Origin: Candidatus Brocadia sp. | Lineage (GTDB): Bacteria; Planctomycetota; Brocadiia; Brocadiales; Brocadiaceae | Direction of reading: 5' to 3' | Length of the DNA stretch: 32,000 bases | Assembly: GCA_021650915.1 (NCBI GenBank) | Contig: CP091279.1 | Span: 1,260,001-1,292,000 of the forward strand | Shown here: one piece after another, positions 8,266-30,457 of the stretch | How positions within the stretch are numbered: the first letter of the stretch is position 1 | Layout of the letters: each line of letters opens with the position of its first letter | Program-made: the position numbers and the translations under genes | The notes under the pieces: generated by a model | Seen by the model: the letters and a program-made list of their open reading frames with translations, nothing else | The model's database searches: none | Told to the model about the DNA's origin: nothing

Positions 8266-9078
8266 TTATCCCTTATTTCTCCTGAGAATACAGGAGATTT
8301 CTTCATTCAAAGCATTCCGCCACTCCCGATATTTTCTGGGAAACGGCTTGTCTTTTTTCAGCATAGTATACAAATAATTAATCCTCGACTCTACCATAAG
8401 TTTTGCCATCTCAGTGTTATCCTGCACGTAGGTATTGATTAAATCCAGGATTTTGTCTTTATTCGCATGAAATTTTTCTATGATTTCAACGATATGTGGC
8501 ATATCATGAACGACATTTTTACTAAAAAACAGTACGACTGCATCCGGAAAAGACAATATATCGTCATCACTGCTAATAATGAGGGATGCATTGTGGTCGA
8601 TAGCGTACACCCTTCCGTCATCGGTAAATAACACATTTCCTAAATGCCTGTCGCTATTCCCGATGATAAAATCAAAGACCCGCAATCGTTCATAATCTTT
8701 CCTCTCTTCATCCGTAAATCTCTCAATCTGATACCCATCCTTGGCGTTTTTAATCCAGTCCTGAACCGAGCCATCATACTGCACATTGCCAATCATATCA
8801 TCAATCACCATTGTTTTAGGCACAAGTCCCAGACCCACAATCTTATCAATTTGATAAACAATCGCTTCCCGGATTGCGGTATCCGGATTATCAGCCATCC
8901 AGTAATGTCGGATATCACACTTGAATATTACGGCGCTTCCATCCTTAAATATAATCTTCTCCGGACCGCGCGGGCCCCCCATCCATCGGTCATATTCTAT
9001 ATGGTCTATCTCTCTGTCCTTGATCGAGCCAAAGATCCCTTCTTTGACGCCTTTTTCGAAAATACTTTTCTCTATCAT
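8266..9078 (-). CDS. PI3/PI4-kinase-like (type II PI4K / HipA-like catalytic core) protein of unknown substrate
   Basis: VIFK (putative ATP lysine, K53), GSVQDWI (hinge-like), FDFIIGNSDRHLGNVLF (catalytic-loop DRHxxN, nt 8635-8652) and YAIDHNASL (DFG-equivalent). The ATG lies 9 nt after the lipB stop. Confidence 0.55.
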   Translation of the reverse strand: MIEKSIFEKGVKEGIFGSIKDREIDHIEYDRWMGGPRGPEKIIFKDGSAVIFKCDIRHYWMADNPDTAIREAIVYQIDKIVGLGLVPKTMVIDDMIGNVQYDGSVQDWIKNAKDGYQIERFTDEERKDYERLRVFDFIIGNSDRHLGNVLFTDDGRVYAIDHNASLIISSDDDILSFPDAVVLFFSKNVVHDMPHIVEIIEKFHANKDKILDLINTYVQDNTEMAKLMVESRINYLYTMLKKDKPFPRKYREWRNALNEEISCILRRNKG

Positions 9079-14525: not shown

Positions 14526-17729
<3,204 letters not shown>

Positions 17730-17862
17730 TTACCGTGCAATGCCCTATATAAGTTCAAAGTCCGATTGGTGAAATCCGACACAAATACAACATGCTAAAT
17801 TCCACGGAATGAATCATTTTTCTTTTACTCATTTTTTGGATTTTGCGCCTCAGATTTTTTAG

Positions 17863-19395
17863 TTAATGCTCATGGGTTGCGCCTGCTTTCCCCAGATCGG
17901 CTTTGAGGATAAAACTGTTGCGCGCAACATACCGCTCTCCCGGCGAGAGGCCGCGCACCACCTCTACCCATCGTCCGTCGTTCCGTCCCAACTCCAATGG
18001 ACGGACCTCGAAGACGTTATCATACTGCACAAAAACGACAGACACGTCGCGAAATGTTTGTATTGCATCAACTGATACGGCAACCGGCACGGTCACCTCT
18101 TCCTGAACAATTTCGACCGTGACGAAGAGACCCGGACGCCAACGCCCCTCCGGATTTTGTATGACGACCCTCCCCTGAGCGGTGCGCGTTTGCTCACCAA
18201 CGAGCGGGCCTAAATACGTCAGCGTGCCATTTGCTTCCAGACCTAATATCTTAGACCTTGCCGTAACGTTTTGTCCAACCCTGACCACGCTTAAGTCTTT
18301 AGCATATACCGTGACCCCTACCCAAACCGTACGTAAATCAGCAATGGCATAAATATCTGCATCTGCCTTAATAGCTTCACCCACGGCAATCTCCTTTTTA
18401 ATGACAATGCCGTCGAACTGCGCTTTTAGCTCATATCGTGTAAGCCCCCTGCCCGTCATTTCGGGAATACTATCCAAATCAGTTTGGGAAAACCCCAATG
18501 CGAGCAGTTTTTGAGTGGCCGTTTGCAGATTTATCTCTTCTTCTGCCAATGCCTGACGGCTGACAAGATAGTCTCTTTCTGAAGAGATCTTCTGTTTCCA
18601 GAGACGCTCCTTCCTTTCAAATGTCGCGCGCGCAAGTTCCGCTCGTTTCACAGAAGCCATGTACCCACTCTTCAGTTCCGCCACTTCCCGACTGTCAAGA
18701 ACAGCAATAACCTCGCCATGACTAACCGTATCGCCAAGATTTTTGTTTACCTCAGTTACCACACCTGAAACTCTCGGTACGACATGCACTACCTTATCTG
18801 CATTGAGTTCAATCTCGCCGGGAAGTTCAAGTACGCTCTTCATTGGTACCGAACCAGCAGTTTCAACAACGATTCCGGCACTTTGTATCGCCTCCGGCGT
18901 AAGCTCGATCCTTCCCTCTATCTGCGAGTATTCCCAGCGATGGACATGGCCGTTATACTCTGCCACCACGGCAACATCAAACGAGTGTGGTTCTTCTATA
19001 ATCCTGTCACTGCAAAGATGATCACTCTCACTCTTAAAGTTGATAACATCTACTTTTCCACCAAGGCGATGTAATTCTATCGTCAGTTTCACCATATCAG
19101 GATCGATCACTTTTCCCTTGTCATATACATGAACCCAGAACAGGGGCGGGGTTCCCTGTTCATGCATAATGATCTCAACCTGAAAACGGCCTTCAGACAA
19201 CAATCGCCCGCCATGAGGCCCTTTTGCATGGTTATCATTCTCATGCTCATGCTCATGTTCTCCGGCAGCGTGCTCATGGGGTTCTTCAACTGTTATTTTC
19301 TCCATCCGCAAAATAATAAAGGCCAGAATACTCCCCATCAGGATGACGATACCAATTGCTAATTTTTTTTTATAACGAATTATTACGTTTTTCAT
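17863..19395 (-). CDS. RND periplasmic adaptor (membrane fusion protein) with a His-rich N-terminal segment (adaptor 1)
   Basis: It has a TM anchor (LAIGIVILMGSILAFIIL), a His-rich segment (EEPHEHAAGEHEHEHENDNHAKGPHGG, nt 19213-19278), then biotinyl-lipoyl-like, hairpin and beta-barrel regions (VPRVSGVVTEVNKNLGDTV...). The start is uncertain: ATG 19395 (MKNVII), ATG 19449 or GTG 19482. Confidence 0.85.
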   Translation of the reverse strand: MKNVIIRYKKKLAIGIVILMGSILAFIILRMEKITVEEPHEHAAGEHEHEHENDNHAKGPHGGRLLSEGRFQVEIIMHEQGTPPLFWVHVYDKGKVIDPDMVKLTIELHRLGGKVDVINFKSESDHLCSDRIIEEPHSFDVAVVAEYNGHVHRWEYSQIEGRIELTPEAIQSAGIVVETAGSVPMKSVLELPGEIELNADKVVHVVPRVSGVVTEVNKNLGDTVSHGEVIAVLDSREVAELKSGYMASVKRAELARATFERKERLWKQKISSERDYLVSRQALAEEEINLQTATQKLLALGFSQTDLDSIPEMTGRGLTRYELKAQFDGIVIKKEIAVGEAIKADADIYAIADLRTVWVGVTVYAKDLSVVRVGQNVTARSKILGLEANGTLTYLGPLVGEQTRTAQGRVVIQNPEGRWRPGLFVTVEIVQEEVTVPVAVSVDAIQTFRDVSVVFVQYDNVFEVRPLELGRNDGRWVEVVRGLSPGERYVARNSFILKADLGKAGATHEH

Positions 19396-19584
19396 AGTAT
19401 TGTTACCATAAGACAGAGTAGGATAGGTTAAGCAAAGCGAACCCATCATTACCTTTTTTTTGTTGGGTGCGCTCCGCTTCACCCAACCTACTTAAATCAA
19501 ATTGGTCTTTTATCATTGTCCTGCGCACCAGATGGGGTAATCACGCTTGAGGATTCTGGCAACGGACAACCATTTTCTTTCGCC

Positions 19585-19700
19585 GGTTCAATCATCCTCG
19601 ATCGAACTGAAACATTTGGTATATTTTCATTTTATAGCAAGTATTCATATCTATCGCTCAGTTCAAAATGTATGGATCAATCTGCAAGATTGATCCAGCC
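19585..19700 (-). repeat. Conserved ~115-nt double-hairpin element, copy A (between ynfA stop and adaptor-1 start)
   Basis: The element reads GGTTCAATC/atcctc/GATCGAAC, then AAACATTTGG, 41 nt, GTTCAAA, 6 nt, then GGATCAATCT/gca/AGATTGATCC and AGCC. It is collinear with copy B. The strand assignment is tentative and rests on a G.U versus A.C argument. Confidence 0.8.
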
Positions 19701-19750
19701 AAAAAACATGAACAAACTCGTATGTTCACGCCACCCTTGCTTATCTCAAA

Positions 19751-20089
19751 TTATCCCCTTGGCCAGTACATAATAATAACCACACCAACAAGGGCAATAA
19801 AACCACCGATCAGGTCAAATTTGTCAGGGGCTATCTTGTCAATCTTCCATCCCCAGAGAATAGAAAGAACTATGAATATACCACCATAGGCAGCGTACAC
19901 CCGGCCAAAATTTGCTGGCTGAAATGTTGGTATAACTCCATAGATAACCAGCGCTATTGCTCCGGACAAACCGAGCCAGATACTCTTCCCCTCCCTTAAC
20001 CAGAGCCATATCAGGTATCCTCCGCCTATTTCACAGAGTCCGGCAAGGATAAAAAAGAAAATTGACCTGACAATTTCAACCCTTTCCAT
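19751..20089 (-). CDS. ynfA: YnfA family (UPF0060) small inner-membrane protein
   Basis: [25 protein letters not shown]...[21 protein letters not shown] aligns with E. coli YnfA over its full length. I prefer the ATG at 20089 (GAGG lies 8 nt upstream) over 20107. Confidence 0.85.
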
Positions 20090-20125
20090 GTTTTGCCTCA
20101 TTTCCATTTCTTATACTGCCTCGCT

Positions 20126-20239
20126 AGTTCAATCGTCGCCGATTGAACTAAAACATTTGGCTTTTTTAATGGCTGGAACTAATTTAAAAACCCAAACCCC
20201 GTTCAAATATCCGGTTCAATCTACAAGATTGAACCAGCC
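20126..20239 (-). repeat. Conserved ~115-nt double-hairpin element, copy B (between pump-2 stop and ynfA start)
   Basis: The element reads AGTTCAATC/gtcgcc/GATTGAACT, then AAACATTTGG, 40 nt, GTTCAAA, 5 nt, then GGTTCAATCT/aca/AGATTGAACC and AGCC. Confidence 0.8.
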
Positions 20240-20324
20240 ACGTGAAGGGGGCAGACACATTTTTGCCCTCCCCTGTATCTCTTTTCATCTCCGCGTCCTC
20301 TGCGGTCTCTGCGGTAAAATTATT

Positions 20325-23300
20325 TTATGCTATCTTAATCCTTTTCGGAAACCATTGGTAGAGGGCAGGGATCACAAAAAGGGTCAAAAAACTGGAAAAA
20401 CATACCCCGCCAACGATTACTGTTGCCAACGGTTTCTGCACTTCAGCTCCTACATCGTTAGACATTGTCATAGGCAGCAATCCAATAATATCCGTCATAA
20501 CAGTAATAAGTATGGGCCTGAGTCGTGTCGAAGCCGCCTCGATGATGGCGTCTCTCGTTTCTCTCCCTTCCTGCAGGAATTCGTTGATAAATGACACCAT
20601 AACGGTGCCGTTTAATACACACAGTCCAAAAAGCGAAATAAATCCTACCCCCGCGGAGATACTCAGGGGCATATCTCTCAGGAACAAGGCCACAATCCCT
20701 CCTGTTGCTGCAAAAGGAACATTTACGTATATAAGGGCGGCATTTTTCAGGGAACGGAAACTCATATAGAGGAGCACAAAAATTAATCCCATGGAAAGGG
20801 GGATAACGATTGCAAGGCGATTCCTTGCCCGTTGCATATTCTCAAACTGTCCGCCCCAATCCAGATAATATCCCGGTGGGATATTCACGCCTTCCCGTAT
20901 CTTCTTTTGTGCCTCTGCCACAAAGCTGCCGATATCCCTGCCCCGGACATTGCACTCAACCACAATACGTCGATGTCCGTTTTCACGGCTGACCTGGGCA
21001 TGTCCTTCTTCAACATAAATATCCGCCAATTGGACGAGCGGCACACGCACACCGCCCGGGGCGCTGATCAGGATATTTTTAATTTCCTCAATGCTATTCC
21101 TTGATTCTTCCGTAAAACGGACCAAAAGGTCAAATCTCATTTGCTCTTCCAGCACCTGCGACGCGGCCCTGCCGCCAATAGCCGTGGTGATAACATCCTG
21201 TATATCTGACACATTGATTCCGTAACGGGCAATGGCGTCCCGGTCAATCTTTATCTGTATCACCGGCAACCCTGCCACTTGTTCACCTTTCACATCCTTC
21301 GCCCCCTCTATATGTGCAACAACTCGTTCGATCTCCTCTGCCTTCGACTTTAACACCTCATAATCCGCGCCAAAAAGCTTAATGGCAACGTCAGAACGGA
21401 CGCCGGCTATCAATTCACTGACCCTGAGCTCAATGGGCTGCGAAAAACTGTACTGTATGCCGGGGATCTTCTTCAAATCCTCTTCCATACGGGCAATGAG
21501 TCCCTCCTTGGTCCTTGCCGTCTTCCACTCTTTCTTCGGTTTGAGCATCACAAACACATCACTAATTTCCTGTCCCATGGGATCTGTGGCGATTTCAGCC
21601 CGTCCGGTCTTGGACACCACCGTCTCTACCTCCGGATATTTCATGAGCGTTTTCTCTACGAGCGTAGAGAGCTCCACCGACTTCTTTAACGAGACACTGG
21701 GCAGTCGCCGGGCGTTGATCGCTATGGCGCCCTCATCCAATTCAGGCATAAACTCTGAGCCTAAAAAGGGGACAAGGGCAAGGCTGGAAAGAAAGCACGA
21801 AGCGACAATGATAAGAGACATCCTGGGATGGAATACGGCCTTTTGTAAAAAAGGTTTGTAACGATTCTTTAAAAATCGCATAATGCGGTTATCTGCCTCT
21901 TCTTTCTGCAACGTTATCCTTATTCCCCCTTTTTTAAAAACAAGGGAGCACAGGCTTGGCATAATAACCAGGGCAACAAAGAGGGAACTCAGCATGGCAA
22001 GACTTACCGTGAGGGCTACCGGCTTGAACATCTTGCCTTCAACACCTTGCAAGGTCAGAAGCGGCACATAGATAATAATGATAATTCCAACGGCAAAGAA
22101 GACAGGACGCCCCACCTCTTGCGTTGCACGCAGTATTATTTCCTTGTAATCATCACTATTTTTTCTCAAGGTAAGGCGCTGGACAATATTTTCCACGGTG
22201 CAAACTGAACCATCAGTAATGTTGCCAAACCCCAGAGAACCGATACTCATTACCGTGGCTGCAATTCCTGCATGATACATGCCTGAAAAGGTTAAAATAA
22301 CCGTTAAAGGAACGGAGAAGGCAATAAGGAGTGATACCCGCCAATTTCCTACCGTTAACGTAAGAACTATGATTATCAGGGCAATACCGGAAATAACATT
22401 GGTAATCACCGTATGGATAACGTTATTGACAAGGTCGGTCCGATCGTAAAATGGTATGATATCAGCGCCTTTCGGCAGGTTTTGCCGAATCTCCTCAACC
22501 TTCCGCTTTACCCTTTCCACTACTGTGCGGCTATTTTCATCCTTGAGCATCATGGCAATACCCGCAACAACCTCTCCCTTGCCATCCTTAGTGACCGCCC
22601 CGTAACGCACCTCTGAACCCACTGCCACGTCGGCAATATTTTTTATATAAATGGGTGTGCCTTCCGGAGTGGCCTGAACGACGATATTTTCTATATCTTG
22701 TATGGTATTGATGAGACCAATCCCCCTTATGAGATACTGTTCAGAAGCATGCTCTATATATTGTCCGCCAGCATTGGCATTATTGGCCGCCAGGGCATCA
22801 AAGACCTGCCGGAGGGTAATATCATGCGTGACAAGCTTTTTGGGATCCACTTGCACCTGATACTGCTTTACAAAGCCGCCAAAGCTGTTGACCTCAATGA
22901 TCCCCGGGGTGTTCAGTAGTCTGGGTTTGATTATCCAGTCCTGGATGGTTCTCAGTTCCATGTTATCCTTGCCTTCTCCGGTAACCACGTATTGATATAT
23001 TTCACCCAAACCCGTGCTAATCGGACCCATGATAGGCTGAGCATGAAATACCTGCGGTAGCTGCTCTTTTGCCGTTTGTAACCGCTCCAAGACCAATTGA
23101 CGGGCAAAATAGATGTTTACGTGGTCGTCAAATACTACCGTGACCTGAGAAAGCCCCGTCTTTGAAATGGAGCGCACCTCCACGACATCCGGTAAGCTGC
23201 TCAAGGAGAACTCAATGGGAAACGTAATGAGTTTTTCCACTTCAAGAGGGCCGAGCCCAGGCACTTCGGTATTAATCTGTACCTGGTTTGTCGTAACATC

Positions 23301-23420
23301 GGGAACGGCATCAATTGGCAAGCGCACAAGATAATATAAACCCCATCCTGTAATGACGCATATCACAATAATGACAAGAAAACCTTGTTTTAGCGCATGT
23401 TCGATAAGTTTGTTGATCAT
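20325..23420 (-). CDS. Heavy-metal efflux RND pump, CzcA/CusA family (pump 2), with a divergent TM4 motif
   Basis: 1031 aa and collinear with pump 1: PIDAVPDVTTNQVQI, GLGEIYQY, ANNANAGG. TM4 reads GFGNITDGSVCTVEN (nt 22188-22232) instead of DFG...DGA...VEN. The start codon is ATG. Confidence 0.9.
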   Translation of the reverse strand: MINKLIEHALKQGFLVIIVICVITGWGLYYLVRLPIDAVPDVTTNQVQINTEVPGLGPLEVEKLITFPIEFSLSSLPDVVEVRSISKTGLSQVTVVFDDHVNIYFARQLVLERLQTAKEQLPQVFHAQPIMGPISTGLGEIYQYVVTGEGKDNMELRTIQDWIIKPRLLNTPGIIEVNSFGGFVKQYQVQVDPKKLVTHDITLRQVFDALAANNANAGGQYIEHASEQYLIRGIGLINTIQDIENIVVQATPEGTPIYIKNIADVAVGSEVRYGAVTKDGKGEVVAGIAMMLKDENSRTVVERVKRKVEEIRQNLPKGADIIPFYDRTDLVNNVIHTVITNVISGIALIIIVLTLTVGNWRVSLLIAFSVPLTVILTFSGMYHAGIAATVMSIGSLGFGNITDGSVCTVENIVQRLTLRKNSDDYKEIILRATQEVGRPVFFAVGIIIIIYVPLLTLQGVEGKMFKPVALTVSLAMLSSLFVALVIMPSLCSLVFKKGGIRITLQKEEADNRIMRFLKNRYKPFLQKAVFHPRMSLIIVASCFLSSLALVPFLGSEFMPELDEGAIAINARRLPSVSLKKSVELSTLVEKTLMKYPEVETVVSKTGRAEIATDPMGQEISDVFVMLKPKKEWKTARTKEGLIARMEEDLKKIPGIQYSFSQPIELRVSELIAGVRSDVAIKLFGADYEVLKSKAEEIERVVAHIEGAKDVKGEQVAGLPVIQIKIDRDAIARYGINVSDIQDVITTAIGGRAASQVLEEQMRFDLLVRFTEESRNSIEEIKNILISAPGGVRVPLVQLADIYVEEGHAQVSRENGHRRIVVECNVRGRDIGSFVAEAQKKIREGVNIPPGYYLDWGGQFENMQRARNRLAIVIPLSMGLIFVLLYMSFRSLKNAALIYVNVPFAATGGIVALFLRDMPLSISAGVGFISLFGLCVLNGTVMVSFINEFLQEGRETRDAIIEAASTRLRPILITVMTDIIGLLPMTMSNDVGAEVQKPLATVIVGGVCFSSFLTLFVIPALYQWFPKRIKIA

Positions 23421-23500
23421 TGTACTCGCAGATCTCTAAAATGTATTTGGGGAAAACTACTGGAATCTGTAGTTTCAGGTTTTTTCACGGGACTATCGCG

Positions 23501-24832
23501 CTAATGTGCGCACCCCTCTCCAAATTTTTCCTTCATGATCCCAGACTTAAGCAGAAAACCTCCCTTGACAACCACACGATCGTTCTTGTTTAGCCCACTG
23601 ACAACCTTTATATGGCCATCTACCTTCGTACCCAGGATCACATCGCGTCTTAAAAAAAATCCCTCGTGAAGAGGCACAAAGACAAAGCGGTTTTGGCCAT
23701 CTGACTGAACGGCCTCTTCAGGCACAATAGGTGAATTATTCGTTTTTTCTGAGTGATGCAGAAGCGATACCTTGGCAAACATACCAGGTTTTAATTTTTT
23801 ATGGCGATTGTCAACCTCTGCCCGGACCTTCACCGTGCGCGTCTTTTCATCAACGGTAACTCCAATATACGTAACAAGCCCCTCGAATTGTTCCTCCGGA
23901 TAAGAGGCAACCGATATCACCACCTTATTTCCAGGATTGACGACGGAAATGTCTTTTTCGTAGATATCAAACCATACCCACAGATTAGTGAGGTCGGAAA
24001 TAGTTACAATAGGGGAAAAGGCATCTTTGAGTTCACCAATAGCGACACTTTTTTCGACCACCGTGCCATCGAAGGGGGCAGAAAGAGTAAATAGGGAGGA
24101 TACTTGATCTTCCTTTATATCCTGGATGTCATCCTCCTGCTGACCCATGAGCATCAACTTCTCTTTAAGCGCTTTTAGCTCTATGCGTGCCTGTTCGTAA
24201 GTGTTTTCAGCTTCCAAAAAATGCTTTGTGGAAGAAATCTTTTGTTTATAGAGAGTCTTTTCCCTGGAATAGTTCTTTTTTGCCATTCTCAGCATTGCCA
24301 TTGCCTTCTTATAATTTGCCCTGACCTCGCCCAGTTCTATGCTATCCAATACAGCCAGTCTCTGTCCTTTCTTCACATGATCTCCCCAGTCCACAAATAA
24401 CTCCTTAACAACCCCTGATACCCTTGGGGAAACGATAACAAAACGGTCCCGGTTTGGTCCCACTGCACCTGTTGCCTTATGAGTTATTTCCATATCAAAC
24501 AATTCGACATTTTCAATGGTTATAATCTCTCCCAGTATCGATGTATCGACCTTGACGGCCCCCACCTCATAACGACACCCGTCACACTCGAGAATGGGGA
24601 CATTGTGTTCACATTGCTTTTTTAACAGTTCTTCATAGCTATTGTTTTTCATCGCAGGAACACACAAGGAGCACGCTGCCTCAGGAACACCGTGTTCCTG
24701 GCACATTTCATCTTTCTGTGCATCCAGACAACCCTGATGTGCTGCAACATCTGCAACAGGAAGGATACCCGTGCATAAAAGAATAATCATGAACCGGATC
24801 ATTGTGGTTTTAGATAACCGTAAATAAATCAT
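23501..24832 (-). CDS. RND periplasmic adaptor with twin Cys motifs at the N-terminus (adaptor 2)
   Basis: It has a signal/anchor sequence, then CQEHGVPEAACSLC and CEHNVPILECDGC (nt 24575-24703), then the adaptor core (SPRVSGVVKELFVDWGDHVKKGQRLAVLDS...). GGAAGAGGGA lies upstream of the ATG at 24832. ATG 24802 is an alternative start. Confidence 0.85.
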   Translation of the reverse strand: MIYLRLSKTTMIRFMIILLCTGILPVADVAAHQGCLDAQKDEMCQEHGVPEAACSLCVPAMKNNSYEELLKKQCEHNVPILECDGCRYEVGAVKVDTSILGEIITIENVELFDMEITHKATGAVGPNRDRFVIVSPRVSGVVKELFVDWGDHVKKGQRLAVLDSIELGEVRANYKKAMAMLRMAKKNYSREKTLYKQKISSTKHFLEAENTYEQARIELKALKEKLMLMGQQEDDIQDIKEDQVSSLFTLSAPFDGTVVEKSVAIGELKDAFSPIVTISDLTNLWVWFDIYEKDISVVNPGNKVVISVASYPEEQFEGLVTYIGVTVDEKTRTVKVRAEVDNRHKKLKPGMFAKVSLLHHSEKTNNSPIVPEEAVQSDGQNRFVFVPLHEGFFLRRDVILGTKVDGHIKVVSGLNKNDRVVVKGGFLLKSGIMKEKFGEGCAH

Positions 24833-24888
24833 ATGATTCTTTTTTCCCTCTTCCGTAGTTGAATGGTAAAATAATTTTCAAATCACCC

Positions 24889-26223
24889 TCATTGCTCCCG
24901 TATTTTCGTTACTGCCAGTCTCTCAATGTCTGCAATTATCAGATTTAAATTTTTCAGGGATTCTACATAGGAAATCCTCGTTTCAGCCCATGTCCTTTGT
25001 GCATCGAGGAGGTCAATATAATCAAACTCCCCCTCTCTGTATCCTCTTGTTATGAGCGTAAGCGCTTCATCCGCTTTGGGCAGAATCTTTTCCCTGTATT
25101 CCATGACACGTTTCCGTTCTATGTTGAATGAATTGAAATTTCTTCTTAACTGAAATAGCAGTTCGTTGTAAACCGACAGATTTTCACTTTTTGCCTTTTT
25201 TGCAAGGGCTTTCCCTTTTTGTATATTGCCCTGGTTACGATTAAAGAAGGGGGCCGGTATCTCAACGCCCAACTGTACGGTGTCTATGTTTTCCGCGGAG
25301 AGTCTTTTATAACCTGCAGACACCGTGATATCGGGGATAACCTGTCTCTTTTCCAGCATCAACTGCGTGTCAGCCACTTCAATATTCTTTTTTGACGCCT
25401 TAAGAGATGGTTGATTATCGCTCATCTGCAGTTCAAGTTCATGAAGAGCCAACGCACCGGGCTTCGACAAGAGATTACCCGTCACACCATCGATGACATC
25501 CTCCGGAATGCCCATCACCGTCTGTAATTCTTTTATAGAATTCTGGAGAACGCCTTCTGCATGGAACACGGAATTTTTTGCCATTGACAATTCCACCTCT
25601 GCCCTGAGGACGTTTGTAATGGCTACTTCTCCCGCTTCAAACCGGAGTTTCTCACTCGCGTAAATACCCTTTGCAATTTCCTCCACCTTTCTCGCTATGA
25701 CCAATCCTTCCTGATCTCCAACAACTTTATAAAATGCCTTTTTTGTGTTGGCCATAACCTCCAACAAAACAGTATCGCGTTCGAACTCATTTTTTTCCTT
25801 TGATTTTTCGCTGACCTTAATTCCTAACCCCCTCTTCCCACCCGTAATGATGGGCTGAGTCACGGCGACGAGATTTTGGCTTTGATTTAGCCCTATTTCG
25901 TTGTCAGGAATTTCTTCGGCTAACAATTCCAGGACAGGATTCGGATATAATCTTGATTGTCTTAATTCGCCTATGGCTGCGTCTATCTGATCTCTGGTTG
26001 ACTGCAATTGCGGATTCTTTTCAACTGCAATACGAATGGCATCTTCGAGTGATATTTTTTTGCTTGATACTTGATACTTCTCGTCCGCGACTGTGGCAGG
26101 AGAATCCTTTCCGAAGGCCATGAACCGGAAATTTGACAAAAAGGCAGAGACACCGACGATGAGGATAAAACAAATGCACATGCTTCTTTGAATACGAGGT
26201 TTAGATATCAACTGCATATTCAT
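24889..26223 (-). CDS. TolC/CzcC-family outer-membrane efflux factor
   Basis: Signal-like N-terminus and a two-repeat coiled-coil/beta-barrel OMF pattern (LEDAIRIAVEKNPQLQS...; ...DLLDAQRTWAETRISYVESL). It is the first gene of the OMF-adaptor-pump trio. The ATG at 26223 has GAAAGG upstream. The track start at 26229 is TTG. Confidence 0.8.
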   Translation of the reverse strand: MNMQLISKPRIQRSMCICFILIVGVSAFLSNFRFMAFGKDSPATVADEKYQVSSKKISLEDAIRIAVEKNPQLQSTRDQIDAAIGELRQSRLYPNPVLELLAEEIPDNEIGLNQSQNLVAVTQPIITGGKRGLGIKVSEKSKEKNEFERDTVLLEVMANTKKAFYKVVGDQEGLVIARKVEEIAKGIYASEKLRFEAGEVAITNVLRAEVELSMAKNSVFHAEGVLQNSIKELQTVMGIPEDVIDGVTGNLLSKPGALALHELELQMSDNQPSLKASKKNIEVADTQLMLEKRQVIPDITVSAGYKRLSAENIDTVQLGVEIPAPFFNRNQGNIQKGKALAKKAKSENLSVYNELLFQLRRNFNSFNIERKRVMEYREKILPKADEALTLITRGYREGEFDYIDLLDAQRTWAETRISYVESLKNLNLIIADIERLAVTKIREQ

Positions 26224-26259
26224 AAACAACCTTTCACGATAAATCGGGTAATGTAGCGT

Positions 26260-26289
26260 ATTATCCAGTACAAACTTTTTATAGTGTAA
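26260..26289 (-). promoter_or_regulatory. Candidate sigma70-type promoter for the OMF-adaptor-pump operon (TTACAC-18-GATAAT on the minus strand)
   Basis: Hexamers read from the minus strand, ~35 nt upstream of the ATG at 26223. This rests on motif resemblance only. Confidence 0.25.
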
Positions 26290-26334
26290 GTATCTCCATA
26301 TATATCCCGCTTGCTCGCTTTAACCGGCAGAAGT

Positions 26335-26361
26335 AGTTGACCGTTGGCAGTTGATAGTTGA
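26335..26361. repeat. Three direct AGTTGA(C/T) repeats (26335, 26349, 26356)
   Basis: Read directly: gtAGTTGAccgttggcAGTTGAtAGTTGAcat. They lie ~110-135 nt upstream of the OMF start, so they could be an operator. Confidence 0.5.
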
Positions 26362-26414
26362 CATAAATGATAAAGTCTTCATTGCCAACTTCATGAGCAC
26401 GACATTCCCGAGTC

Positions 26415-26447
26415 CACCCTGTCAGAGTTTAAAACCCTGATAGGGCT
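26415..26447. repeat. Dispersed 33-nt twin-hairpin element, copy 2 (CACCCT gtc AGAGTT taaa AACCCT gat AGGGCT)
   Basis: Same architecture and orientation as 7047-7079. Intergenic. Confidence 0.8.
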
Positions 26448-26722
26448 CATGATTTTCGTAGTTTTCGCTGAGCCGCAAAATTATCTTTGGAGGATACGGT
26501 CGATTAATGCGTGTCGTTCTCTTTACTCGCTTTGCCGACCAAAAACAACCCGGAGAAGTTTCTACAGAATTGCACCAGTAACAGTAGCCTTGGAAACTTG
26601 CCTAGAATAGGCCGAAGCGTCGCGCTATGTTTTCCGTGCTTTGTTGTGAGACACCACGGACAGTTACATGGTCAACATTCAGCCGAACGGCCCTGACGTA
26701 AAAAGACGAGCGTTAAAGGGTA

Positions 26723-27052
26723 TTATGCAGCGAAACGCGGTGGATGATAAATGATAGTCTGGAAAATGCTTTTGAAATGATTAACATGAAGGGTTTGAAC
26801 CCAACGGGGAGACCTATTGAGAAAGAGGAAAGATTTTTGCAGTAAACCCATGACTAAATTGTGGGTACACAGCAGGCAACAATGTGAGCAATGCTGATCA
26901 TCCATGGGAAGAGAATCAAGAACATCCTGATGGGATATAACTGCTGCTTCCTTTTCCGCACAATGCAACACATCGCCTTCCACACATCCCAATAATAAAC
27001 AATCGCCTGGCAATATGCACAAAAGAAACCATATCATCAAAATACCTTGCAT
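26723..27052 (-). CDS. Small Cys/His-rich protein (~109 aa) with a hydrophobic N-terminus; putative metal-binding accessory protein
   Basis: From ATG 27052 the product reads MQGILMIWFLLCILPGDCLLLGCVEGDVLHC...DDQHCSHCCLLCTH...IIYHPPRFAA. It lies upstream of, and on the same strand as, the efflux operon. No SD is visible, and the upstream part of the 151-aa track ORF is AT-rich low-complexity sequence. Confidence 0.4.
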   Translation of the reverse strand: MQGILMIWFLLCILPGDCLLLGCVEGDVLHCAEKEAAVISHQDVLDSLPMDDQHCSHCCLLCTHNLVMGLLQKSFLFLNRSPRWVQTLHVNHFKSIFQTIIYHPPRFAA

Positions 27053-27231
27053 GGTTTTTTTACAGAAAATAGTTTTATGCATAAAGAGAAAATAGAAATT
27101 AATCGTTGTATGGAGGTTTTTAAAGAAGTTTTCCTGTCCTGTAAAAATTTTCTTTTTCATAAAATTTTTACACCCCATTCAGAGTTCCCCCCATGCAAAG
27201 GAGGAATGAAAAGGGTCATCCAATCGTAACT

Positions 27232-27364: not shown

Positions 27365-29287
27365 ATGTATCTCTCGATTAAAAATCGACTCATTTTTTTA
27401 CTCATTGCTTTTACGTTACTCCCTTTCGTTCTGCTCAGAATGATTGCCTACCCAAGAGTACAGTCTGATCTTCAGGAAATCCTTATACGAAACCTCGACG
27501 GAATTGGTCATAAACAGGCAGAATTGGTAACGAACTGGGTACAGGAGAGGGTTAAAAATATTAGCGTAATCGCAGAAAATCCTTTTATGGCCACATGTGC
27601 AAAAATGACTGAGAAGGATCAGGATTATCCGTATATCGTTCAATATTTAGAATCAATAAAACGCAAATACGGCTACAAGGAGATACTTATCAGTGATAAT
27701 AACGGGCTCATAACCATTGCCACTGCAGTAGAAAGGGCTGGTCACGACATTTCCCAAATGAATTACTTTCAACAGGCGCTTCACGGGAATACCTATATAT
27801 CAGGTATCGTTCCTTCTGAAATTCCCCTAACTAATGAATTGGGAGAAAAAGAATTAGGCATGCCAACCATGTTTGTTTCAACGCCATTAAAAGACAGGGA
27901 TGGAATGATTATCGGTGTCATTGTCATTCGGGTGGACGTAAACGCACTCAATAGCCTTATGTTGAGCCTAAAGTTAGGAACAACCGGAGAAACCTATCTG
28001 GTAAATAACGATGGTTACATGATAACCGAATCACGGTTCGTCCAAGAGCTTAAGGACATGGGCTTAGTAAAACGAAGGAGCGCTTTAGAATTAGCGTTGA
28101 TCAATCGGGAAACGGGCGAATTAACCCGTGGTGTTAAACAGTGTATTGCCGGCATCAATGGTTTCGATGCGAAAGGCTATAGAGATTACCGGGGTACCTT
28201 AGTACTGGGCGTATGGCGCTGGCTGCCTGAATATCATTGGGGCGTTATGGCGGAAATAGATAAAGGCGAAGGCTATGGACCAGCATATAATCTTAATTAT
28301 ATCGTAAGTTCAACATTGATCATACTCGTGGTTCCTATCGTACTGGTAGCATACTTTATCGGCAAAAAGACTTCTACCCCCATCATTCAGCTTACGGAAG
28401 TGACAAAAAAAATTGCATCAGGAGATTTAACCCAGTGTGTAAATATAAAGAGAGCCGATGAAATCGGGATTTTAGCAAACTCCTTTAACGCCATGGCAAA
28501 ATCGTTGGATGAAAAGACGCGGGAGATAGCGGCATCGGAGAAGCGGTATCGGGAATTATTTGGCTCGGTGAAGGAGGGTGTGTATCAATCGGAACCCACC
28601 GAAGACGGCGAGTTTATCAACATAAACCAGGCAGGGGCAGAAATCCTTGGCTATAATTCTCCGGAAGAAGCAATTGGTAAAAAGGTAAAGGACATTTACG
28701 TAAATCCGGAAGACCGCAGAAAGGTCGTTGAAAAACTGACGAAAGACGGAATATGGAGGAGTTTTAGTTCGCTATGCAGGAGGAAAAACGGAGAACAGTT
28801 TTACCTGGAACGGACATCGAATCTGGTTGTCGATGAAACGGGCAAACCTCTCCGTATCGACGGAATCTTCAGAGATATCACGGAACGGAAGCTCCTGGAA
28901 GGAGAATTGCAGGAATCAGAACTCCACTACCGACAATTGTTGAAATTATTGAAGGAAGGCATATATCAATGTGAACCCACGGAAGACGGGGTGTTTACAT
29001 GGATCAATCAGGCGGGAGCAGAGATGTTTGGTTACGCTTCACCGGAAGAAGTGATCGGCATACCGATGAAAAATATCTATGTAGATACTGCTGATCAAAA
29101 AGAATTGATCGATATCCTGCAAAAAAATGGGACGCGGAGAGACTTTATTGTTTACGGTAAGAAAAAAAGTGGCGAACGATTCATTTCTGAAAACACCTGT
29201 AATCTTGTCCGTGATGCCAGCGGCAAACCGATCAAGATCCTTGGAATATTCAGAAATATAACGGGAAAGTGCTTTGCAAATAGCTGA
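27365..29287 (+). CDS. Membrane sensor protein TM-dCache-TM-HAMP-PAS-PAS with no recognisable output domain
   Basis: AAGGAG SD and ATG start. TM1 is LIFLLIAFTLLPFVLL, followed by a periplasmic Cache-like region (~aa 35-305). TM2 is IVSSTLIILVVPIVLVAYFIG, and HAMP is PIIQLTEVTKKIASGDLTQCV...DEIGILANSFNAMAKSL. Two very similar PAS repeats follow (KEGVYQSEPTEDGEFININQAGAEILGY... / KEGIYQCEPTEDGVFTWINQAGAEMFGY...). The ORF stops right after PAS2 (GIFRNITGKCFANS*). Confidence 0.8.
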   Translation: MYLSIKNRLIFLLIAFTLLPFVLLRMIAYPRVQSDLQEILIRNLDGIGHKQAELVTNWVQERVKNISVIAENPFMATCAKMTEKDQDYPYIVQYLESIKRKYGYKEILISDNNGLITIATAVERAGHDISQMNYFQQALHGNTYISGIVPSEIPLTNELGEKELGMPTMFVSTPLKDRDGMIIGVIVIRVDVNALNSLMLSLKLGTTGETYLVNNDGYMITESRFVQELKDMGLVKRRSALELALINRETGELTRGVKQCIAGINGFDAKGYRDYRGTLVLGVWRWLPEYHWGVMAEIDKGEGYGPAYNLNYIVSSTLIILVVPIVLVAYFIGKKTSTPIIQLTEVTKKIASGDLTQCVNIKRADEIGILANSFNAMAKSLDEKTREIAASEKRYRELFGSVKEGVYQSEPTEDGEFININQAGAEILGYNSPEEAIGKKVKDIYVNPEDRRKVVEKLTKDGIWRSFSSLCRRKNGEQFYLERTSNLVVDETGKPLRIDGIFRDITERKLLEGELQESELHYRQLLKLLKEGIYQCEPTEDGVFTWINQAGAEMFGYASPEEVIGIPMKNIYVDTADQKELIDILQKNGTRRDFIVYGKKKSGERFISENTCNLVRDASGKPIKILGIFRNITGKCFANS

Positions 29288-29384
29288 TGCTGACCTTTCG
29301 GTGTCATTTCTGTAAATGAACCGGGTTAGAGGTTCGGATAACTGAGAGGCATGGAAAAAGTCATCCCCTCTTTGACTCATTCTG

Positions 29385-29493
29385 CTAGTGTGCAGACATA
29401 TTAATTACAAATTATATATTGTGGACAATTTTAACTATATCGCGCCGTAAAACAGCATTTATATGTTTCGTTATTAATATGTCTCTACACTAG
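29385..29493. repeat. 109-bp unit bounded by 21-nt inverted repeats (CTAGTGTGCAGACATATTAAT ... ATTAATATGTCTCTACACTAG)
   Basis: The arms are complementary at 19/21 positions, with an adjacent 2-nt mismatch. The spacer is 67 nt and AT-rich. The right arm ends 1 nt before the GGAG SD of the kinase gene. Confidence 0.8.
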
Positions 29494-29504
29494 GGAGTTA
29501 AAAT

Positions 29505-30311
29505 ATGTATTCAATCGACAAATACCATTTTAAAGAATTCAAGATTGCGCCTGGTCACCGGGCGAACTACGCTGTCCTCTGTAATACCGAATTTGAAGAA
29601 AACCAATGGGGTATGAAATATTCACCTGCGAACAATTATTCAAGAGAATACAAGATATTGCCTCTCTTTTCCCACCCGCAGATTCCCATCAGATACAAAG
29701 AGGGAAATGCCATGATGTACAAAGAAGGTAAATCAGTAATCGCACAAAACTATCTCATTATAACCCATTTTGAGGGAGCGGATATCGTTGAATATTTCCA
29801 AAAGAGAGGGTTGCCCGATCAGGATGAAATGAAGCGTGTGATTCAATATTTTTCCAACGCCACGCTACCCTTGCACCACATGCACTCCAAGGGATACATC
29901 CACAGCGATATTAAACCAGGACACATCATTTTAAATCCTCATACGGGCACAATAGCGCTGATTGATCTCGAATGCACGATTAAAATCGGAGAAATCATTT
30001 GCGGTATGAGCAAGGAATACGCATCGCCAGAACAAAAACAGATGATTCGCATGCTACGCGATGGTGAGGAGGAAAAAACTGTGTTGAAAAAAGTCAAGAT
30101 GAACGCGGCATCAGATATGTATTCTGTTGGCTTGATTTTTTACCGGGTATTGACGGGGAAATTATGGCAGGAGGCAAATATCAACCCACAAGAAATCAAC
30201 AAGGCCATTCCGGATAAACTCAACCGGGTTCTCTTAGGACTTTTAGAGGAAAACCCCGATAATCGTATCCCGTCTGCAGAGGCACTAAAAAAAGAACTAG
30301 CGACAGTATAA
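29505..30311 (+). CDS. Stand-alone Hanks-type Ser/Thr kinase-like domain with degenerate catalytic motifs (possible pseudokinase)
   Basis: The subdomain pattern is recognisable: WGMKY (VAIK-like K38), REYKILPLFSHPQIP (alphaC Glu and HPNI-like), YIHSDIKPGHIIL (HRDLKPxN-like, aa 131-143), IDLE (in place of DFG, aa 153-156), YASPEQ (APE-like), SDMYSVGLIFYRVLTG and NPDNRIPSAEAL. The Gly-rich loop is replaced by IAPGHRAN. It has no TM segment and no extra domains. Confidence 0.75.
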   Translation: MYSIDKYHFKEFKIAPGHRANYAVLCNTEFEENQWGMKYSPANNYSREYKILPLFSHPQIPIRYKEGNAMMYKEGKSVIAQNYLIITHFEGADIVEYFQKRGLPDQDEMKRVIQYFSNATLPLHHMHSKGYIHSDIKPGHIILNPHTGTIALIDLECTIKIGEIICGMSKEYASPEQKQMIRMLRDGEEEKTVLKKVKMNAASDMYSVGLIFYRVLTGKLWQEANINPQEINKAIPDKLNRVLLGLLEENPDNRIPSAEALKKELATV

Positions 30312-30457
30312 TTCCTCAGACTAAGCCTCATACAACACAACGAAAGCCATAATACCACCGCTCATAAACGATTACGGCATAGGAAACCATTTACGAATTT
30401 CTCTAAGAAGGCACTTCTTTGACCGTTCCCATTTCGTATTTCCCCTTAAATGCACGA

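Follow-up and report, generated by a model that had tools for sequence, protein, structure and literature searches.

Can a membrane sensor that ends where an output domain would be expected, and a soluble kinase encoded directly after it, act as one receptor kinase divided over two polypeptides? The question is raised by positions 27365 to 30311 of a 32,000-nucleotide stretch of the Candidatus Brocadia sp. genome (assembly GCA_021650915.1, contig CP091279.1, positions 1,260,001 to 1,292,000 of the forward strand; the whole stretch is hereafter the window), where a sequence-only reading had recognized an output-less sensor, here called S, followed by a stand-alone Hanks-type kinase, here called K-A, and had proposed a split receptor kinase. 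We find that the evidence supports S and K-A as a conserved same-strand two-gene cassette in the Brocadia clade, and that, as judged from sequences and gene neighbourhoods, direct coupling of S to K-A has a probability of about 0.4. The output-less sensor, the stand-alone kinase and their association in Brocadia all stand, while an obligate pairing does not. The sensor gene comprises the following features, with the source of each assignment in brackets (TM, transmembrane segment; aa, amino acids; ORF, open reading frame).

27365..29287, plus strand: sensor gene S, 640 aa (ORF, Pfam, NCBIfam, hydropathy)
27389-27448, plus strand: TM1 of S (hydropathy)
27470-28246, plus strand: dCache_1 of S (Pfam)
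28289-28363, plus strand: TM2 of S (hydropathy)
28355-28510, plus strand: HAMP of S (Pfam)
28547-28885, plus strand: PAS1 of S (Pfam)
28922-29263, plus strand: PAS2 of S (Pfam)

All domains of S score above the Pfam gathering cut-offs: dCache_1 over residues 36-294 (3.7e-21), HAMP over residues 331-382 (2.4e-14), and two PAS domains at about residues 395-507 and 520-633 (PAS_9, 7.3e-28, in two stretches). With the TM-like segments that hydropathy places at residues 1-30 and 308-337, these make up a Cache/HAMP/PAS transmembrane input module, and the chain TM-dCache-TM-HAMP-PAS-PAS without output, as first proposed, is borne out by both profile hidden Markov models and hydropathy. Pfam gives no match of S to HisKA, HATPase_c, GGDEF, EAL or MCP (HisKA and HATPase_c down to E<=0.1), so that the dimerization/phosphotransfer (DHp) and catalytic (CA) domains of a histidine kinase are both missing; the NCBIfam matches, including those to WalK and AtoS, are partial, cover HAMP-PAS alone and fall far under the histidine-kinase family cut-offs. 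The two PAS domains are 50% identical and appear from this comparison to be tandem duplicates; their earlier description as near-duplicates was right about the duplication and overstated its closeness. Among solved structures there is a weak match to the PAS domain of FixL (8.7e-7), from which a ligand cannot be deduced.

The lack of an output domain extends beyond this copy of S. The 120 best listed sensor homologues come from Brocadia, Jettenia, Loosdrechtia and related metagenome-assembled genomes and measure 635, 762 or 889 aa, corresponding to 2, 3 or 4 PAS domains; none of them contains HisKA, HATPase_c, GGDEF, EAL or MCPsignal, and those aligned all end directly after the last PAS, at GxFRDIT(E/G)(R/K). 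By homology, S belongs to a family of membrane sensors specific to anammox (anaerobic ammonium-oxidizing) bacteria, with the plan TM-dCache-TM-HAMP-PAS x1-4 and, family-wide, no enzymatic transmitter.

The kinase gene and its landmarks are the following.

29505..30311, plus strand: kinase gene K-A, 268 aa, soluble Hanks-type fold (Pfam, AlphaFold2, Foldseek, hhalign)
29550-29570, plus strand: K-A PGHRANY
29616-29618, plus strand: K-A Lys38 codon
29646-29648, plus strand: K-A Glu48 codon
29901-29924, plus strand: K-A HSDIKPGH
29964-29972, plus strand: K-A DLE
30024-30032, plus strand: K-A SPE

K-A matches Pkinase in Pfam over residues 43-260 (4.7e-15, 56 bits) and has no hydrophobic segment by hydropathy, in agreement with the original description of the downstream gene as a 268-aa kinase domain without TM or sensor. 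The AlphaFold2 model has a predicted local distance difference test score (pLDDT) of 86.8 and a predicted TM-score (pTM) of 0.85, residues 15-19 being its sole low-confidence part. Foldseek relates it to more than 1900 kinase matches in the PDB, the best of which is the kinase domain of PknB (2fum, TM-score 0.74, 22% identity); PknB is also the best PDB match in sequence (hmmsearch, 1.7e-12). As modelled, K-A has the bilobal fold of Hanks-type, or eukaryotic-like protein kinases (ePK).

The motifs read from the sequence are K13-I-A-P-G-H-R-A-N-Y22, K38, E48, H133-S-D-I-K-P-G-H140, D154-L-E156 and S174-P-E176. Alignment to PknB with hhalign equates E48 with E59 (the alphaC Glu), D135 with D138 (the catalytic Asp), H140 with N143 (the catalytic-loop Asn), D154 with D156 (the DFG Asp) and E156 with G158 (the DFG Gly). 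The atypical motifs reported for this gene (PGHRANY as Gly loop, HSDIKPGH, DLE) are real: the stretch I-A-P-G-H-R-A-N-Y has a single Gly and does not conform to GxGxxG, and both the Asn of the catalytic loop (HRDxKxxN) and the Gly of DFG are replaced, by H140 and E156. The SPE is retained, as had been stated, and should not be counted among the oddities, since PknB itself has SPE. Residues 1-43 could not be aligned to generic kinases by either hhalign or the profile search described below, and the assignments of the Gly loop and of Lys38 rest on the strands of the AlphaFold2 model (K38 lies on strand 35-40) rather than on profile alignment. Receptor kinases of the PknB type, the closest to K-A in both sequence and structure, share with it the catalytic Asp, the catalytic-loop Lys, the DFG Asp, the alphaC Glu and the SPE; unlike K-A, they carry a TM helix and an extracellular PASTA sensor in the same polypeptide, and they have GxGxxG, HRD...N and DFG where K-A, a non-RD kinase, has PGHRANY, HSD...H and DLE.

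Close homologues of K-A are known from Brocadia, Jettenia, Loosdrechtia, Kuenenia, Scalindua and Anammoxibacter; the 120 best listed are about 50-90% identical to it, and almost all the full-length ones measure 262-332 aa. In a search of 1.84 billion representative proteins with a kinase profile, 11 representatives were found at E<=1e-30, each of at most 272 aa; beyond this family the scores fall sharply to generic multidomain kinases (at most 122 bits), most of which, the best-scoring included, match from about profile position 44 on. Given this drop in score and the short lengths, the family is isolated and always stand-alone, with an N-terminal stretch of 43 residues unique to it: an anammox-specific family of soluble Hanks-fold kinases of about 270 aa. 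It comprises two ancient paralogue clades, the K-A clade to which the window kinase belongs, and K-B, about 40% identical to K-A. Brocadiales as a whole have few serine/threonine kinases, in nearly constant number (PMC11032199).

How tightly the two families are linked was assessed by tblastn and by clustering of ORFs in loci centred on the kinase, drawn from 79 genomes. In 26 of the 36 Brocadia-clade kinase loci, K-A is directly preceded by S on the same strand; these loci cover S proteins of 2 as well as of 4 PAS domains, and kinases of as little as about 72% identity. The gaps between the two genes vary from 2 to 484 nt, with several of 2, 58 or 70 nt. The outer flanks differ repeatedly: upstream, where at least 7 different neighbours occur, 13 loci have the Czc-like operon and 7 have other genes, and downstream the number of different genes is at least 12. 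In the sensor-centred metagenome loci, every sensor of the 889/640 type with enough downstream sequence adjoins a kinase, and all the 2-PAS sensors seen (635 or 640 aa) have a kinase downstream. Since S and K-A are kept together while their outer flanks vary, the pair moves as a unit through many rearrangements.

These results are consistent with a mechanism in which a periplasmic ligand would bind the dCache domain of S, and the signal would pass via HAMP to the cytoplasmic PAS array, which would shift its binding to partner proteins in trans, with S acting as a ligand-gated scaffold. Because the S family has no catalytic output, it would have to signal by protein-protein contact, and the PAS array is the only candidate contact surface. 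The partner of the S paralogue in the window would most likely be K-A, the best-supported candidate because the cassette is conserved, either recruited to the membrane or allosterically switched there. K-A would then phosphorylate Ser/Thr residues of targets encoded outside the window. Candidate targets suggested by neighbourhood are, in the ancestral and paralogous contexts of the two families, Amt/PII and nitrite transporters, and, locally, the divergent Czc-like efflux system.

Control of a separately encoded kinase by a non-catalytic sensor through protein contact occurs in the RetS-GacS heterodimer and in the RsbR-RsbT stressosome, but the kinases there are of histidine-kinase or GHKL type, not Hanks-type, and the domain content is unrelated to that of S and K-A. 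The closest functional likeness is offered by GlnH-GlnX-PknG of Actinobacteria, whose membrane protein, itself without output, passes a nutrient signal from the periplasm on to a soluble Hanks kinase of the same operon (PMC9769921, PMC6069109); the arrangement in the window is unusual, as had been claimed, and yet not without precedent. Both systems have a soluble Ser/Thr kinase without TM or sensor of its own, encoded beside an output-less membrane protein, and the nitrogen- and amino-acid-related role of GlnH-GlnX-PknG would be a further likeness. GlnX, however, has 4 TM and periplasmic helical bundles and needs the solute-binding GlnH, whereas S has 2 TM and a dCache-HAMP-PAS chain and could bind a ligand itself; PknG combines canonical catalytic motifs with additional rubredoxin and TPR domains, whereas K-A consists of the kinase domain alone and its active site is derived. 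Past the kinase fold, no relationship in sequence between the two systems was found. On the sensor side, the same TM-dCache-TM-HAMP-PAS chain is found in dCache-HAMP-PAS histidine kinases, for example in an NtrB-like kinase of 1065 aa encoded beside the 762-aa paralogues of S; S is 38% identical to this kinase over about 540 aa and lacks its DHp and CA domains.

A number of observations weigh against direct coupling. The kinase family is older than its adjacency to S: in Scalindua and Kuenenia it lies beside Amt-PII-Amt and K-B/metallophosphoesterase, and in these two genera and in Anammoxibacter the kinase has no adjoining S. Even in the Brocadia clade, S is missing from 10 of the 36 K-A loci, and secondary loss is implied by those of the 10 that fall within lineages that have the pair. 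Jettenia caeni and Loosdrechtia have an orthologous 889-aa sensor beside a divergent OEP-CzcB-RND operon (outer membrane efflux protein, OEP; resistance-nodulation-division, RND) without an adjacent kinase, a peptidase or a second RND system lying downstream in its place. Co-conservation of the two genes as neighbours holds for the Brocadia clade and is not universal. Most members of the S family, those of the 762-aa type, have other partners: HPP, a TM coiled-coil protein, a receiver and FocA. No fusion of sensor and kinase was found with the kinase profile among the 1.84 billion representatives. The features that K-A lacks (Gly-rich loop, catalytic-loop Asn, DFG Gly) are often missing from pseudokinases. 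The gap between the two genes in the window contributes two further points. Terminator- and promoter-like matches in it are not commoner than in shuffled sequences, a result that is uninformative on co-transcription, and a hairpin-forming element of about 109 bp, resembling a miniature inverted-repeat transposable element (MITE), separates S from K-A in this strain.

29288..29504, plus strand: S-K intergenic region, 217 nt (sequence, consensus scan, Rfam)
29385..29493, no strand assigned: MITE-like insertion, about 109 bp, with 34-nt imperfect terminal inverted repeats (inverted-repeat search, L090 alignment, RNA fold)

The element, with ends CTAGTGTGCAGACATATTAAT... and ...ATTAATATGTCTCTACACTAG and an RNA fold z of -2.8, sits directly upstream of the kinase ribosome-binding site (a Shine-Dalgarno-like GGGAG, 8 nt before the ATG). 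It is missing in locus L090, which encodes identical S and K-A proteins, and this insertion is the reason for the longer gap in the present strain; neither the window nor the loci retrieved contain a second copy. Rfam gives no match between 26200 and 31000, and hence no structured RNA or riboswitch was found there. Several orthologous gaps contain, about 30 nt ahead of the point where the kinase gene starts, a perfect palindrome that is absent from the window and may represent an operator or an RNA hairpin; L022, L026, L032 and L041 have it at other sites.

L010 8948-8966, L011 2281-2299, L013 2439-2457 and L036 8948-8966: palindrome TGGACAAA-N4-TTTGTCC

The alternative that survives best, and that we consider quite possible, is that S and K-A are neighbours without direct coupling and with separate functions. 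S would then serve the Czc/Cus-like RND operon that diverges from it, or would modulate by heterodimerization a histidine kinase encoded elsewhere; K-A would belong to a phospho-module of K-A, K-B and metallophosphoesterase ancestrally linked to Amt-PII; and the adjacency in Brocadia would be a lineage-specific rearrangement kept by inertia or operon hitch-hiking. The operon in question consists of the following genes (MFP, membrane fusion protein).

20325..27178, minus strand: Czc/Cus-like RND efflux operon, divergent from S (Pfam, synteny)
26723-27178, minus strand: c7, a small Cys/His-rich protein (no Pfam match)
24889-26229, minus strand: OEP (Pfam)
23501-24832, minus strand: CusB/CzcB-type MFP (Pfam)
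20325-23420, minus strand: RND pump (Pfam)

By synteny this operon is a conserved neighbour of the sensor subfamily to which S belongs, and the link of the 889/640-aa sensors to c7-OEP-MFP-RND, seen in Brocadia, Jettenia caeni and Loosdrechtia, the last two without a kinase neighbour, is older than their link to the kinase. Two Czc-like RND systems lie upstream of S, and the window contains no two-component regulator, of the CzcRS type or otherwise. The similarity of S to the dCache-HAMP-PAS-GAF-PAS histidine kinase encoded beside the 762-aa paralogues would fit this alternative. For the kinase, the order in Scalindua and Anammoxibacter is a metallophosphoesterase and K-B on one strand, and Amt, PII, Amt, K-A and a zinc-ribbon protein on the other ([metallophosphoesterase <- K-B] [Amt - PII - Amt - K-A - zinc-ribbon protein ->]; L043-L064), so that K-A directly follows Amt-PII-Amt. 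In Kuenenia, Amt-PII-Amt on the minus strand is followed by K-B, the phosphoesterase and then K-A (L037-L039). The 306-aa metallophosphoesterase and K-B form a tight pair everywhere, with gaps of about 8-10 nt, including in Brocadia, where the pair lies away from Amt. This conserved order suggests that K-A, K-B and the metallophosphoesterase make up a kinase/phosphatase module linked to ammonium transport; no description of such a module together with Amt-PII-Amt was found in the literature searched. The absence of any fusion also fits separate functions.

Against mere neighbourhood, and in favour of direct coupling, S and K-A remain adjacent although their flanks are reshuffled, including in loci without a Czc-like operon upstream (L009, L010, L015, L036, L040, L025, L042); the gaps of 2-70 nt in several loci suggest a single transcript; and the kinase is downstream of every 2-PAS sensor seen.

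Among the remaining S-family members, the cassette of the 762-aa type is always HPP, sensor, a 176-aa TM coiled-coil protein without Pfam match, a stand-alone receiver and FocA/NirC (L002-L006, L091-L124), with, usually, a dCache-HAMP-PAS-GAF-PAS histidine kinase and a sigma54 response regulator upstream; the Scalindua-type sensors, of about 530 aa, occur in the order FocA, HPP, S and coiled-coil protein. As for the efflux genes, c7 carries the motif HCxxCCxLCxHN and is conserved, in many loci of the Brocadia clade, at the head of the divergent OEP-MFP-RND operon; since it usually has 119 aa, the 151-aa ORF in the window probably starts further in. The second, tandem Czc/Cus-like system comprises an RND pump (14526-17720) and an MFP (17863-19482), the two systems together spanning 14526-26229 on the minus strand.

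A different alternative, assessed independently of coupling, is that the kinase is a catalytically dead pseudokinase that serves as adaptor or nucleotide-binding switch for S or for K-B. In favour of this are the want of a canonical GxGxxG loop, the His in place of the catalytic-loop Asn, the change of DFG to DLE, and the low model confidence confined to the N-lobe loop of residues 15-19; K-B could then be the active partner. The residues that remain, and those that replace the canonical ones, can be judged from their invariance in 57 K-A and 25 K-B ORFs (82 in all) from all anammox genera. The positions invariant throughout are H18, N21, Y22, G36, K38, Y39, E48, H133, D135, K137, P138, G139, H140, D154, E156 and P175-E176. 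This set contains the four ePK core residues present in K-A (beta3 Lys, alphaC Glu, catalytic-loop Asp and DFG Asp) and also the catalytic-loop Lys, which speaks against a dead enzyme. K-B, whose equivalent of the Gly loop is x-x-H-K-S-N-Y, without Gly, carries the same His-for-Asn and Glu-for-Gly substitutions, so that neither paralogue is the more canonical. Moreover, the replaced positions hold conserved potential ligands (His, Arg/Lys, Asn, Glu) and not random residues, and the ratio of nonsynonymous to synonymous substitution rates (dN/dS) of the window kinase is 0.05-0.09. For these reasons the motifs should not be called degenerate, as they had been: the odd residues are as invariant as the core, and the active site looks like a derived and selected one rather than a decayed one. 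It has H18/N21/Y22 at the place of the Gly loop, His for the catalytic-loop Asn and DLE for DFG, with Lys38, Glu48, Asp135, Lys137 and Asp154 kept. Because all residues needed for phosphotransfer are retained, K-A is probably catalytically active rather than a pseudokinase, and it likely uses an altered metal/nucleotide site formed by His140, Asp154 and Glu156, with a His/Arg/Asn clamp in place of the glycines. On balance we regard a dead kinase as rather unlikely.

It is very improbable that the kinase belongs to an anti-phage defence system, such as mad6 of MADS or a PD-T4-6-like system, and we have rejected this candidate. PADLOC and NCBIfam do match it to PD-T4-6, MkoA and mad6 with 50-66 bits, but these scores equal the generic Pkinase level (56 bits), and that for MAD6 (51 bits) compares with a cut-off of 460. 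Directly downstream of the kinase, L007 (9597-14268) and L008 (6953-11624) encode a type III-like DNA methyltransferase of 685 aa along with a Ppl-like ATPase of 899 aa. This pair is present in one sub-lineage only (L007, L008, L117 and L118), inserted downstream of a conserved core gene, and is in L007 and L008 a defence island beside that gene; the kinase itself is vertically inherited and present in all anammox genera, and K-A is not consistently linked to defence genes from genus to genus.

The weakest alternative, that S derives from a histidine kinase by truncation or frameshift, or from an error of assembly, suggested by a protein that ends precisely at the PAS/linker boundary and by some relatives named 'histidine kinase' in UniRef, is negligible and can be excluded in view of the output-less homologues, the conserved stop, the lack of any downstream remnant and a dN/dS of S of 0.08-0.125 against six orthologues. 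The details are as follows. In a DNA alignment of 14 loci that includes the intergenic regions, the orthologous genes end ...ACG GGA AAA TAA, while S in the window ends ...ACG GGA AAG TGC TTT GCA AAT AGC TGA.

29270..29284, plus strand: CFANS, five-residue C-terminal read-through (14-locus DNA alignment)

The CFANS tail results from loss of the ancestral TAA stop after ...ITGK, which is now TGC. The sensor does end at the boundary where an output would be expected, as had been pointed out, but the final GKCFANS is a five-residue read-through past the ITGK-TAA of the orthologues; the extension (codons to stop 29270-29287) is particular to this strain and its relative in L090. The 217 nt that follow the stop of S are full of further stop codons in each of the three frames, and tblastn with the DHp and CA domains of the closest output-bearing relative gives no match at E<=10 in 29201-30400; the reported absence of a HisKA/HATPase remnant downstream is confirmed on both counts. 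An identical 640-aa protein is recorded on 48 contigs, one of them of 3.25 Mb, and L090 is an independent record with identical S and K-A proteins, which together make a misassembly unlikely. The missing output is a property of the family, in keeping with the sequence-only reading, to which a simple truncation by frameshift was not evident. An antisense ORF of 113 aa (29039-29380, minus strand) overlaps the 3' end of S and part of the gap; nothing supports it, and it is probably spurious.

Elsewhere in the window, a 270-aa ORF (8266-9078, minus strand) with a PI3_PI4_kinase domain (2.9e-11) lies between the genes for lipoyl synthase and lipoate-protein ligase, within a 2-oxoacid dehydrogenase operon; such a small PI3/4-kinase-like protein is unusual in a bacterium.

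These results can be viewed against the little that has been described of how anammox bacteria sense ammonium and nitrite, their energy substrates, which must cross several membranes, and regulate their uptake. The literature searched on the regulation of transport offers only Ks-Amt5, an Amt-histidine-kinase fusion (PMC5764959), and the transcript changes seen in transporter transcriptomics of Kuenenia, where the kinases described here are not mentioned (PMC7438415); it contains no account of either the S or the K family. S and K-A represent two uncharacterized, anammox-specific families under strong purifying selection, and the reading of the pair as a split receptor kinase, with a sensor acting in trans on a Hanks kinase, is partly supported by the present analysis. 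If their adjacency were only an accident of neighbourhood, the finding would shrink to the annotation of these two families. The active site of the kinase is a natural experiment on the minimal needs of a protein kinase, a strictly conserved one without glycine loop, catalytic-loop Asn or DFG glycine in which the phosphotransfer residues are kept. In a broader scheme, which on present evidence from sequence we hold to be doubtful, K-A, K-B and the metallophosphoesterase would form an anammox-specific Ser/Thr phospho-switch that controls how the catabolic substrates are taken up by the Amt/PII ammonium channels and the HPP/FocA nitrite transporters, the output-less dCache-HAMP-PAS family would provide its periplasmic substrate sensors, and the kinases would work with a new metal/nucleotide site, in which Asn gives way to His, DFG to DxE and the glycine loop to a His-Arg/Lys-x-Asn clamp. 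An output-less sensor family and a pair of atypical kinases with a linked phosphatase, tied by neighbourhood to these transporters, are concrete and testable candidates for the regulation of this uptake; and the phospho-switch, if real, would be the first system described that regulates substrate transport in anammox bacteria, with S and K-A as one of its input branches.

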